From: Candidatus Gottesmanbacteria bacterium
Lineage (GTDB): Bacteria > Patescibacteriota > Microgenomatia > UBA10105 > UBA927
Direction: 5' to 3'
NCBI GenBank assembly: GCA_023245355.1
Contig: JAHFKN010000002.1
Span: forward strand, 136,460-200,459
Length of the DNA: 64,000 nucleotides
In this document: in pieces, positions 59,105 to 60,976 of the stretch
Layout: each line of letters starts with the position of its first letter
How positions within the stretch are numbered: the first letter of the stretch is position 1
The notes under the pieces: generated by a model
Databases searched by the model: none
Told to the model about the DNA's origin: nothing
What the model saw: the letters and a program-made list of their open reading frames with translations, nothing else
Translations under genes and position numbers: made by a program

Positions 59105-59488
59105 TCATTTACCTATTCCGCGCGCGAGTATATCCCATGCCTGAATTATCCCCGTTGCAGCAAAAATAACTCCGATAATAGTAAGCACCAAAAACAATCG
59201 TTGTAGTTTATCGTTCTTCTCATTTGCAACTGTAATTGTACGAATTAACCTCTGTATATCACCCTGAAGATATACAATACTGTCATCGAGACTTGTGAGA
59301 AGTTTACCTAATTTTTTAGTTTGTTCCGTATTGTTTCCCTGAAGATTTTGCAACTCAATCACAGTGAGTTCAAGCCTGTCATTCGTAGTAGCTGTGAGAT
59401 CATTAGCAAAACCGTTACCCGTGGTAACCTTCCTAAATTGTTCTCTTCCTTTTGGTTGTGATTGATCAACACCTTTTAATTCTGTCAT
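59105..59488 (-). CDS. hypothetical tail-anchored coiled-coil protein
   Basis: Start set at MTELKG. Helical with a C-terminal TM (LFLVLTIIGVIFAATGII). Last gene of the Mrr-like operon. Confidence 0.5.
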   Translation of the reverse strand: MTELKGVDQSQPKGREQFRKVTTGNGFANDLTATTNDRLELTVIELQNLQGNNTEQTKKLGKLLTSLDDSIVYLQGDIQRLIRTITVANEKNDKLQRLFLVLTIIGVIFAATGIIQAWDILARGIGK

Positions 59489-59501
59489 ATTTATAGAAAT
59501 T

Positions 59502-60626
59502 TTAAACCTGCGGATGCCATCTAAAAGCTCTTCTGTAGCCCGCTTTTTCTGCCTCCGCAACAGTCATGGCATAAAATTCACCTTTGCTAGGTTCTATCAC
59601 AACAGTGTCGTACTGTTGATCCATAGGAAGATGATAAATTTTCTCTTTATTTTTGCCTGAAATATTGCATTTAATACATGGATATCGTTCAAGCCTAAAA
59701 TTCTCCACAAGTTCTATTCCCAAATCTTTAGAAAAGGATTTAGCAACCTCTGATAATTTTGTAGAGGTGTAGAAAGCGGCACGCACCTTATGATCTGGAA
59801 AATCTAATTTGTATCTATAAACAGTACCAAAAAATTGAAATATATGATTCTCATATATAGTTTTAAATTGTGACCAATTTTTGCATTGAATCACGACGAC
59901 CTCTTTTCCTTTCTTAGCAATCAAGTCTCTGCCCAAATCCTCAAATCCCTTAAAAATTCCATGAAATTCTACCTCATATCCATCTTTTTCAAACAAATAT
60001 CCCACATATCTCTCGTAAAGAAATCCAATTGCACCCTTACTCTTTCTCCGTTCCCAATACCTATCTAAAGCGAGTTGGTTGCGCTCAACTGTTGGAAGTT
60101 TTCTATACTCTTCTTTTGATAAAAACTTAATTGTAGGATCTTGTAGCTCCTCTTGCGTATACTCCTGCAAAACCTTTCTTGCTTCTAGCTCATCTAGCAG
60201 CTCTCCTTTTGCGTCTATAAGAAACGGAGCGAGTGTTTCGTAATATTTGTTAATAAACTCTGTAATCTTAGCCTGTTTAACCGCTTCTGTTTTTTGCTTC
60301 GAGAGATCTCTCACCAAATCTGCGGATTTTTGTGCAGGATGAGATTTTGTTTCTAAATAACTTGCATATCGTCCGTCATAGAGCGATAAATATTCTGCAT
60401 ATGCTTCAGCGAGCAAAGGAAAGCCAAGGGAATATTGCTTACTCAAGTCTTCCAAATCTTGTTTTTGCTTATTTACGATTTCTATTCTTCTTTTTAGCTC
60501 CTCGTTTAAGGATTCTAATTCCTGTCCGCGGGAATTATACTTTTTTTGGGTTTCGCCGAAGTAAGAGTAAACAGCTGCAACAGCATAGATGGTGACGCCT
60601 ATAAATATTAAAATTGCTATTTCCAT
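59502..60626 (-). CDS. membrane-anchored Mrr-like restriction-endonuclease-fold (PD-(D/E)xK) protein
   Basis: N-terminal TM, long coiled coil, then a C-terminal Mrr_cat-like block IGFLYERYVGYLFEKDGYEV...DLGRDLIA...VVVIQCKNW. Confidence 0.65.
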   Translation of the reverse strand: MEIAILIFIGVTIYAVAAVYSYFGETQKKYNSRGQELESLNEELKRRIEIVNKQKQDLEDLSKQYSLGFPLLAEAYAEYLSLYDGRYASYLETKSHPAQKSADLVRDLSKQKTEAVKQAKITEFINKYYETLAPFLIDAKGELLDELEARKVLQEYTQEELQDPTIKFLSKEEYRKLPTVERNQLALDRYWERRKSKGAIGFLYERYVGYLFEKDGYEVEFHGIFKGFEDLGRDLIAKKGKEVVVIQCKNWSQFKTIYENHIFQFFGTVYRYKLDFPDHKVRAAFYTSTKLSEVAKSFSKDLGIELVENFRLERYPCIKCNISGKNKEKIYHLPMDQQYDTVVIEPSKGEFYAMTVAEAEKAGYRRAFRWHPQV

Positions 60627-60628
60627 AG

Positions 60629-60976
60629 TTAAGTCACGCTTTTAGTAAAATGGCAGTTTGGATATCCTACGCATCCCATAAATGCCCCATATTTTCCTGT
60701 ACGCCTTACAAGACCTTTACCGCACTGCGGACATGTGGGAAACCTTAGTATTCTTCCTCTGAATTTATATCTGGTTTCCGGAACTGGAAAGGGGGTAAGG
60801 CTTGGAAAAAGATAACCGATTTCAGGTGCAATTTGAGATAGAGGTGTTCCTTTGGGTATAACTTCATAGGTTTGTTGTAGTTGTTTTTCAAATGATTTGA
60901 TTTTGGGATATATAAAGAGCGAAATAAATAGCATGAAACAAGACCCCGCGAATAATAAAAACAGCATAAATTCCAT
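60629..60976 (-). CDS. membrane-anchored protein with topoisomerase-type C4 zinc ribbon
   Basis: N-terminal TM and a C-terminal CPQCGKGLVRRTGKYGAFMGCVGYPNCHF zf-C4_Topoisom-like motif. Its stop lies 2 nt from the next gene's start. Confidence 0.6.
   Translation of the reverse strand: MEFMLFLLFAGSCFMLFISLFIYPKIKSFEKQLQQTYEVIPKGTPLSQIAPEIGYLFPSLTPFPVPETRYKFRGRILRFPTCPQCGKGLVRRTGKYGAFMGCVGYPNCHFTKSVT

Follow-up and report, generated by a model that had tools for sequence, protein, structure and literature searches.

Predicted membrane anchoring in cis or in trans in a family of Mrr-type nucleases found mostly in Candidate Phyla Radiation bacteria

The A-B-C locus and the architecture of protein B

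We analysed a stretch of 64,000 nt from Candidatus Gottesmanbacteria (GenBank assembly GCA_023245355.1, contig JAHFKN010000002.1, positions 136,460 to 200,459), here called the window, and in it three genes, A, B and C, which encode a small transmembrane (TM) zinc-ribbon protein, a TM protein with an Mrr-type nuclease domain and a small helical protein with a C-terminal TM helix, respectively (Table 1). The initial annotation had described them as co-directional, tightly packed and situated in an AT-rich island, and the coordinates, the gaps (2 nt between A and B, 13 nt between B and C) and the base composition agree with this: from about 57 kb to the window end the GC content is 34-39%, against about 49% in the remaining window. 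Because of the tight gaps, of an intrinsic terminator after C and of a promoter-like site before A, the three genes look, by sequence, like a single transcription unit. The promoter-like site lies within a 249-bp divergent intergenic region common to A and to a cII-like gene, and the count of such sites across the region was not above the shuffle expectation. No DNA methyltransferase was found within ±10 kb of A-B-C on the source contig, as had been annotated; the same annotation had taken restriction-type nucleases to be normally paired with a methyltransferase, which for an Mrr-type enzyme is not the case. Enzymes of this type (Type IV) normally have no methyltransferase.

In protein A a proline-rich linker joins the N-terminal TM helix (about aa 4-24) to a C4 zinc ribbon of the topoisomerase I (Top1) type, helix and ribbon being those originally assigned to this 115-aa product; the ribbon matched Pfam Zn_ribbon_Top1 (PF01396) with an E-value of 2.7e-14 and 53 bits (cut-off 32). 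In topoisomerase I a ribbon of this type is a single-strand DNA binder. A-like proteins from other loci share the order of TM helix, linker and Top1-type ribbon in a total of 95-168 aa.

For protein B we built an AlphaFold2 model from an alignment of 120 homologues (mean predicted local distance difference test score, pLDDT, 81.5), in which four parts can be distinguished: a helix from aa 2 to 66 (TM helix and stalk), a helical domain (aa 70-214), an alpha/beta nuclease core and a small beta-rich C-terminal module. The N-terminal TM helix and the Mrr-like nuclease of the first description were thus recovered, and a putative C-terminal domain, called sunset, had been overlooked. The coiled coil of about 200 aa claimed for this protein stood as a helical stalk up to about residue 66, the remainder being a conserved, folded helical domain. 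This middle domain contains motifs with invariant polar residues (GFPxLAxAY, YYE..APFL, KEEYRKL and RNQxALDRxW), and its helices were modelled with pLDDT 85-92 until about aa 130 and with lower confidence at 140-170. It had no match in Pfam, PADLOC or PDB, nor among the hits of the fold search, and PDB sequences searched with the 120-sequence profile of B gave nothing (E > 0.8); it possibly binds DNA or a partner.

The nuclease region matched Pfam PF04471 (E 1.5e-10, 41.7 bits, cut-off 21) and PF13156 (E 1.2e-6, 28.9 bits, cut-off 22), with a weak match to NERD that was below the cut-off (E 0.012). The putative catalytic residues are E205, D230/D234 (EDLGRD) and Q247-x-K249 (VIQCK); E205, D230, D234, Q247 and K249 are invariant across the alignment of the 120 homologues, so that the predicted D/E/K residues are indeed present. 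A Foldseek search with the model gave MspJI as the top match, and AspBHI and the LlaBIII nuclease domain were also among the structural neighbours; at the level of the model, the restriction-endonuclease-like alpha/beta fold is confirmed. The sunset domain of the window's B matched NCBIfam NF051437 just short of the cut-off (E 2.2e-5, 24.4 bits, cut-off 27), while 21 of 22 B homologues matched the same profile at E ≤ 1e-3 (best 1.9e-7), and the region also matched PHROG family phrog_21287 (E 1.3e-6). Its motif, C..KIYHLP.DQQYD..GEFY..EAE.AGFRRA, is invariant among the 120 homologues, and we read the domain as probably a small nucleic-acid-binding module. A search of Pfam for modified-base readers in B (Mrr_N, SRA, YTH or similar) found none at E ≤ 0.1.

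Table 1. Positions in the window of genes A, B and C, of the parts of their products and of other features of the region.
Feature	Position (nt)	Strand	Remarks
Gene A	60629..60976	minus	115 aa, open reading frame
A, zinc ribbon (aa 81-113)	60736..60638	minus	Pfam PF01396
Gene B	59502..60626	minus	374 aa, open reading frame; conserved core of the module
B, N-terminal TM helix (aa 2-23)	60558..60623	minus	hydropathy; predicted N-out/C-in
B, conserved helical middle domain (aa about 67-214)	60027..60428 (aa about 67-200)	minus	invariant columns, AlphaFold2
B, Mrr_cat PD-(D/E)xK nuclease (aa 204-312)	59691..60017	minus	Pfam PF04471
B, putative sunset domain (aa about 317-367)	59526..59678	minus	NCBIfam NF051437
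Gene C	59105..59488	minus	127 aa counted from the ATG
Promoter-like site, upstream of A	61018..61046	minus	TCCACA-17-TATACT; consensus match only, weak
Intrinsic terminator, directly 3' of C	59012..59034	minus	GC-rich hairpin GGAGCGATTAGCTCC and T-run (59034-59020)
cII/sce7726-like gene	61226-61870	plus	PADLOC cll E 5e-26
Beta-protein gene	61800-62963	minus	PD-Lambda-2_C E 3e-37
Helix-turn-helix (HTH)-M78 peptidase gene	62954-63967	minus	PD-Lambda-2_B E 4e-113; cut by the window end
Gene D	58855..58445	minus	136 aa, 2 TM; weak PADLOC 'gop' match, E 5e-4
Gene E	58414..57761		small membrane protein
Direct repeat (about 165 nt), copies	57464-57629 and 58889-59053		95% and 91% identity over two parts
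RNHCP-domain open reading frame	57097-57411	plus	PF12647 E 1.6e-17; at the GC boundary of the island
tRNA cluster	6128-12741		7 genes: 5 tRNA-Ser, 2 tRNA-Arg
tRNA-Ser of the cluster	6676-6762		called with the unusual anticodon ACT

Predicted anchoring of B by its own helix or by protein A

Relatives of B are numerous. The homologue search returned at least 4,198 clusters, almost all of them 356-480 aa long and 52-60% identical over >85% of the length, and by this count the module, initially described as novel and unusual, is not rare. Most homologues from the Candidate Phyla Radiation (CPR) lack the N-terminal TM helix in the alignment, and in such loci the gene directly upstream is A-like.

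We surveyed this relation in the 70 loci for which upstream DNA was available. B carried its own TM helix and had no A upstream in 32 of them, a B devoid of TM helix followed an A gene in 31, both were present in 4 (three from the clade of the window, and locus L053) and neither in 3, an A-like TM and zinc-ribbon open reading frame being placed directly upstream of B in 35 loci altogether. The TM helix in cis and the upstream A are thus mutually complementary (Fisher p = 6e-12). Furthermore, each of the 3 loci with neither has a small upstream TM open reading frame, which in 2 is recognisably A-like with a degenerate or missing ribbon. Judged from these sequences, membrane anchoring is universal in the B family, since every one of the 70 informative loci retains an anchor, and A would be required only if B has no TM helix of its own; the membrane attachment first proposed for the single nuclease of the window is, by this survey and by the charge bias described below, a feature of the whole family.

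By parsimony on a neighbour-joining tree of the B core, the presence of A required at least 8 changes and the TM helix in cis at least 5; therefore the swap is, on this tree, recurrent and not a single-clade event. The gap between A and B is mostly -4 to +6 nt across loci, and such short gaps suggest coupled translation of the two genes.

The orientation in the membrane was predicted from the positive charges (K+R) around the TM helices. For B the mean was 0.27 before and 3.1 after the helix, the bias being present in 27 of 30 loci with a single TM helix, and for A it was 0.13 before and 3.8 after (31 of 32 A proteins). Forms with two TM helices have positive charge at both ends, and in the variants that combine an N-terminal ribbon with two TM helices the ribbon would be on the same membrane side as the nuclease. 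By the positive-inside rule, therefore, nuclease and ribbon are predicted to be cytoplasmic, and the short N-terminus to point outward.

Further variation was seen when the middle domain was searched with phmmer against 1.84e9 representatives (50% clustering), which gave 634 matches: the domain is preceded by 0-300 aa of variable sequence and, in every match inspected, followed by the approximately 180 aa of Mrr and sunset domains. In longer relatives (P0330, P0323, P0295 and P0312) the middle domain is duplicated, a SWIM zinc finger separating the two copies, and in P0045, P0068 and P0210 a different zinc ribbon and then two TM helices are fused at the N-terminus of B. Considering both the SWIM-finger forms and the forms with a fused N-terminal ribbon, zinc modules of different types are, as far as can be read from these sequences, repeatedly recruited in the B family.

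Distribution, genomic context and gene C

In a scan of one genome per species, B relatives occurred in 415 of about 185,000 species genomes, most of them CPR. The CPR lineages among the matches listed included Levybacteria, WWE3, Paceibacterota, Nomurabacteria, Yanofskybacteria and Peregrinibacteria, and the closest named relative among them, with 92% identity, was from a Candidatus Levybacteria genome. Sporadic relatives with 44-57% identity were found outside CPR, in Flagellimonas lutimaris and Nostoc flagelliforme (both isolates), Blastocatellia, Chloroflexota, Planctomycetota, Elusimicrobia, Verrucomicrobia, Methanomassiliicoccales and Geoglobus, hence in archaea too, and the phyla include also Bacteroidota and Cyanobacteria. 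Four Hymenobacter plasmids carry a copy of B annotated as 'restriction endonuclease', which is the only label of the family in the databases, next to a DUF4238 gene. B relatives were also present on 30 IMG/VR viral contigs; among GenBank phages no homologue was found.

To describe the genomic context we clustered all the open reading frames within 4.5 kb of B in 80 loci. The sole conserved partner was A; large serine recombinases came next (12 loci), then tyrosine integrases and HTH proteins (6 loci each). The 142 nearest neighbours were spread over 114 Pfam families with no synteny, in agreement with the expectation that this is not a syntenic core gene; the families include housekeeping enzymes as well as DpnI, Fic/SoFic, AbiEii-like ATPases, DUF4238, reverse transcriptases and integrases. 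A methyltransferase partner was found neither among the top 25 of these 114 families nor in the clustering of the 80 loci. On the viral contigs, 28 of 29 B relatives have N-terminal TM helices and long, variable coiled coils. Among the five closest open reading frames of at least 130 aa per viral locus there were often repressors (four PHROG families, with 14, 11, 10 and 8 members), integrases (8, 4 and 2) and invertases, as well as head and terminase genes. This context matches the position of a lysogeny module, the usual site of exclusion and defence genes in prophages.

The 92%-identical Levybacteria copy adjoins a serine recombinase, a GIY-YIG gene, an integrase and a BamHI restriction-modification pair. 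In the genome of this copy, Levybacteria GCA_001782075.1 (L004-L006), A-B lies about 6 kb from rpoD and dnaG, against about 38 kb in the window; therefore the module is at different positions in related genomes. Because its neighbours are heterogeneous, the island is AT-rich and the phyletic pattern is patchy, we regard B, on genomic grounds, as an accessory, mobile gene and not a core housekeeping gene.

Gene C behaves differently from A. The length of 127 aa and the C-terminal TM segment given in the initial annotation were borne out: an upstream TTG would give 151 aa, and the public gene calls and the invariant M1 of the C-family alignment back the shorter form, which AlphaFold2 modelled as a single, uninformative helix (aa 27-122). 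The family, of 52 clusters, shares a conserved N-terminal motif (TGNGFANDLxATTNDRLELTV) and the C-terminal TM helix (aa about 99-119 in the window's C, at the end of a long helix), and C had no family match in Pfam, PADLOC, NCBIfam or PHROG. C lies next to B solely in the contigs of the window itself and in a single genome with 97% identity. It is absent at the 92%-identical Levybacteria locus, in which a convergent gene takes its place, and at all the more distant B loci inspected. The originally proposed three-gene A-B-C system was rejected for this reason, and C is, on the loci compared, a lineage-specific add-on and not a component of the conserved module.

Elsewhere, C-family genes lie 2-30 nt downstream of other genes, namely a signal-anchored SNase (two locus types), a MUG113/T5orf172 GIY-YIG protein, an SRAP protein, a MutH-like protein (with a weak C match), a homologue of the window's gene D, an integrase and several unknowns (L090, L091/L092/L131, L132/L133, L125, L146 and L136). 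These few independent loci raise the possibility that C is a small, portable membrane partner of nucleases.

The terminator after C is inside a direct repeat of about 165 nt, which includes a bidirectional terminator hairpin and whose two copies flank the small membrane-protein genes D and E; these look like a cassette inserted via duplication of the terminator region downstream of C. A D-like gene with 29% identity (L136, 682-1074) is directly upstream of a C homologue, so that C and D co-occur in two different arrangements.

On the other side of the locus, divergent from A, the genes for a cII-like protein, a Beta protein and an HTH-M78 peptidase correspond to a PD-lambda-2/gop-beta-cII-like system, which extends past the window end (L001, 6165-9401). 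After it, the source contig carries genes for a HigB toxin, for HTH and Omega-type regulators and for a large serine recombinase of 563 aa. Considering these together with the PD-lambda-2-like system, the AT-rich island resembles a mobile defence island that has integrated. Scanned with Rfam, it yielded a chance miRNA match and nothing else. At the GC boundary, the match of the RNHCP-domain open reading frame begins at profile position 30, which means that its start is possibly mis-set or the gene truncated. Other genes in the window encode DnaG, RpoD, TypA and a PilB-type ATPase (type IV pilus/competence-type), and a cluster of tRNA genes lies near its other end.

Candidate function of the module

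Among known systems, the one nearest in architecture is SNIPE (PD-lambda-1) of E. coli, a membrane-bound nuclease cleaving phage DNA during injection (Saxton et al., Nature 2026; PMC13190303). Its parts are an N-out TM helix, an elongated helical stretch, a middle domain that binds DNA and a nuclease at the C-terminus; the N-terminal regions vary widely between homologues and can have one TM helix, two or none, and removal of the TM part results in cutting of host DNA (PMC13190303). B is predicted to share the short outward N-terminus, the one (sometimes two) TM helices, the elongated helical region, the middle domain and the cytoplasmic C-terminal nuclease, and it is likewise a stand-alone gene without a methylase, found in defence or mobile contexts, with an N-terminal region variable in length and type. 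However, its nuclease is of the Mrr PD-(D/E)xK type, whereas that of SNIPE is GIY-YIG/T5orf172; B has in addition the putative C-terminal sunset domain, and in about half of the loci inspected its anchor would be supplied in trans by A. Since the nuclease fold differs and neither DUF4041 (Pfam) nor PD-Lambda-1 (PADLOC) matched B in profile searches at E ≤ 0.1, we conclude from sequence comparison that B is not a member of the SNIPE family and that the resemblance is architectural.

With the Type IV enzymes of the Mrr/MspJI kind B shares the Mrr_cat domain (PF04471), the D...(Q/E)xK motif and the lack of a cognate methyltransferase; these enzymes, however, are soluble and have N-terminal readers of modified DNA (winged helix, SRA-like), in place of which B has a TM helix, a stalk, a novel helical domain and the sunset domain. 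NERD-domain proteins (PF08378) were reportedly described by Grynberg and Godzik in 2004 as combining a PD-(D/E)xK nuclease with predicted TM helices and/or a C-terminal Top1-type zinc ribbon; there the ribbon is fused at the C-terminus, whereas in A-B it is on a separate TM protein. The archaeal AF1548 (PDB 1y88) is small and soluble and is devoid of the TM, stalk, middle and sunset domains of B. A Type II restriction-modification system would have a cognate methyltransferase adjacent to the nuclease, and none lies within ±10 kb. DNA-targeting defences known to rely on membrane localisation are Zorya, Kiwa and SNIPE (review, PMC12904381). Zorya and Kiwa resemble the A-B concept in using a membrane location to act on DNA as it is injected (PMC12904381), but each is a machine of several unrelated proteins (the ZorAB motor, the KwaA/KwaB lattice), with sensors embedded in the membrane and effectors that target DNA, and their PADLOC models were not matched by A-B.

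The reading we favour, to which we give somewhat less than an even chance, is that B is an accessory nuclease for defence or exclusion, restricted to the cytoplasmic side of the membrane, that cuts entering DNA, and that A-B is its two-component version. Precisely, B would be anchored by its N-terminal helix or, in most CPR relatives, by the TM helix of the upstream A, and the helical stalk and helical domain would hold the Mrr-type nuclease and the sunset domain out in the cytoplasm. Confinement to the membrane would keep a methylase-less nuclease off the nucleoid and, at the same time, put it where phage, plasmid or transforming DNA crosses the membrane, with the consequent cutting of the entering DNA. 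For SNIPE, this principle has been demonstrated by experiment (PMC13190303). The zinc ribbon, the sunset domain and the middle domain may supply contacts with DNA or with a partner, and mobile islands and temperate phages would carry the module as a defence or superinfection-exclusion gene. We infer the DNA cleavage, the defence role and the action at the point of entry from the architecture and contexts given above.

Several points weigh against this reading. Many immediate neighbours of B are housekeeping genes, and an identity of 52-60% across CPR classes is unusually high for a defence gene; such conservation might reflect a cellular partner or substrate that is itself conserved. In SNIPE, phage tape-measure proteins are recognised via DUF4041, a domain for which B gave no profile match. 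PADLOC-DB v2 gave for B only a 14-bit match of the coiled-coil region to PDC-M03A (E 0.005) and for A no match at all; the search for a PADLOC system model proposed in the initial annotation was negative for A, B and C, and none of the three matched a known defence family in PADLOC, Pfam, NCBIfam or PHROG beyond the domain matches reported here. In the clade of the window both A and B have a TM helix, and A there is not merely an anchor. Finally, the binding of A to B is something we infer from gene order and complementarity only.

The alternative that survives best is that of an abortive infection (Abi) effector or toxin, inactive or sequestered at the membrane, which would be freed upon infection or perturbation and degrade host and phage DNA, so that the cell dies; we hold it unlikely. 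Lacking both a methylase and an immunity gene, probably non-specific and linked to the membrane as many Abi effectors are, the nuclease would suit this role; the island of the window contains toxin- or Abi-type neighbours (HigB, the PD-lambda-2-like system), and, by analogy, SNIPE is toxic when deprived of its TM part. However, neither the clustering of the 80 loci nor the 142 nearest neighbours revealed a conserved sensor or protease beside B. Its anchor is a simple TM helix in which no cleavage site is predicted; the architectural analogue SNIPE, moreover, defends directly and not abortively.

It is rather improbable, in our estimate, that B is an ordinary Type IV enzyme of the Mrr/MspJI kind, with modified DNA read by the middle or the sunset domain and the anchoring secondary. 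The Mrr_cat match above the Pfam cut-off, MspJI as best Foldseek match with AspBHI also found, the absence of a cognate methylase, which a Type IV enzyme predicts, and the database label all point in this direction, but no known modified-base reader domain was found in Pfam at E ≤ 0.1, and an incidental anchor would leave unexplained its retention in 70 of 70 loci and the at least 5 to 8 replacements in trans. This possibility is compatible with the entry-point reading, to which it would add a source of specificity.

A function selfish to the element, such as the exclusion of competitors, post-segregational killing or the degradation of host DNA on prophage induction, appears to us more doubtful still. 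The frequent linkage to serine recombinases, integrases and prophage regulatory regions is in its favour; on the other hand, there is no conserved antitoxin-like partner, the outcome overlaps with superinfection exclusion, and genes of the lysogeny module are usually expressed in lysogens and protect them, as is the case for prophage morons at this position.

The least probable is a CPR housekeeping or nutritional role, in which a membrane nuclease processes competence-imported DNA for nucleotides (on which, as scavenged nucleotides, CPR bacteria depend) or handles the chromosome at the membrane: the family is commonest in CPR/Patescibacteria and unusually conserved, the window encodes the pilus/competence-type ATPase, and Top1-type ribbons bind single-stranded DNA, the form of entering transforming DNA, but a gene so patchily distributed, present also in unrelated phyla and archaea, devoid of synteny and carried by AT-rich islands, plasmids and prophage lysogeny modules fits such a role poorly. 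A competence or uptake nuclease like EndA or NucA was rejected as the main hypothesis, given the cytoplasmic orientation predicted for B and its mobile, patchy distribution.

The literature searched (including Mrr with transmembrane, and membrane-anchored anti-phage nucleases) contained no relevant paper on the B family or on the sunset domain. The idea of entry exclusion, already put forward in the initial annotation, now has a published precedent in SNIPE (PMC13190303). If the reading of B as a nuclease acting at the point of entry holds, a self/non-self discrimination based on location ('cut DNA crossing the membrane') would not be peculiar to SNIPE and would have been reached at least twice with different nuclease folds. 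A broader proposal, which we consider possible and advance with more reserve, is that the B family is a convergent counterpart of SNIPE and a major immune mechanism of CPR and of many temperate phages, with an anchor interchangeable between cis and trans, and with C possibly a portable partner of Mrr, SNase, GIY-YIG and MutH-like nucleases in Levybacteria-type genomes.

The family is large, generically annotated and outside PADLOC, and is thus missed by current defence inventories. With cultivable carriers, namely Hymenobacter (plasmids), Flagellimonas lutimaris and Nostoc flagelliforme, the idea is open to direct testing, and the recurrent exchange between the TM helix in cis and A would be a clean natural experiment, indicating selection on the anchor itself. 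The concentration of the B family in CPR would be especially relevant if recognised defence systems, CRISPR among them, are sparse in these bacteria and if foreign DNA is constantly taken up by them.

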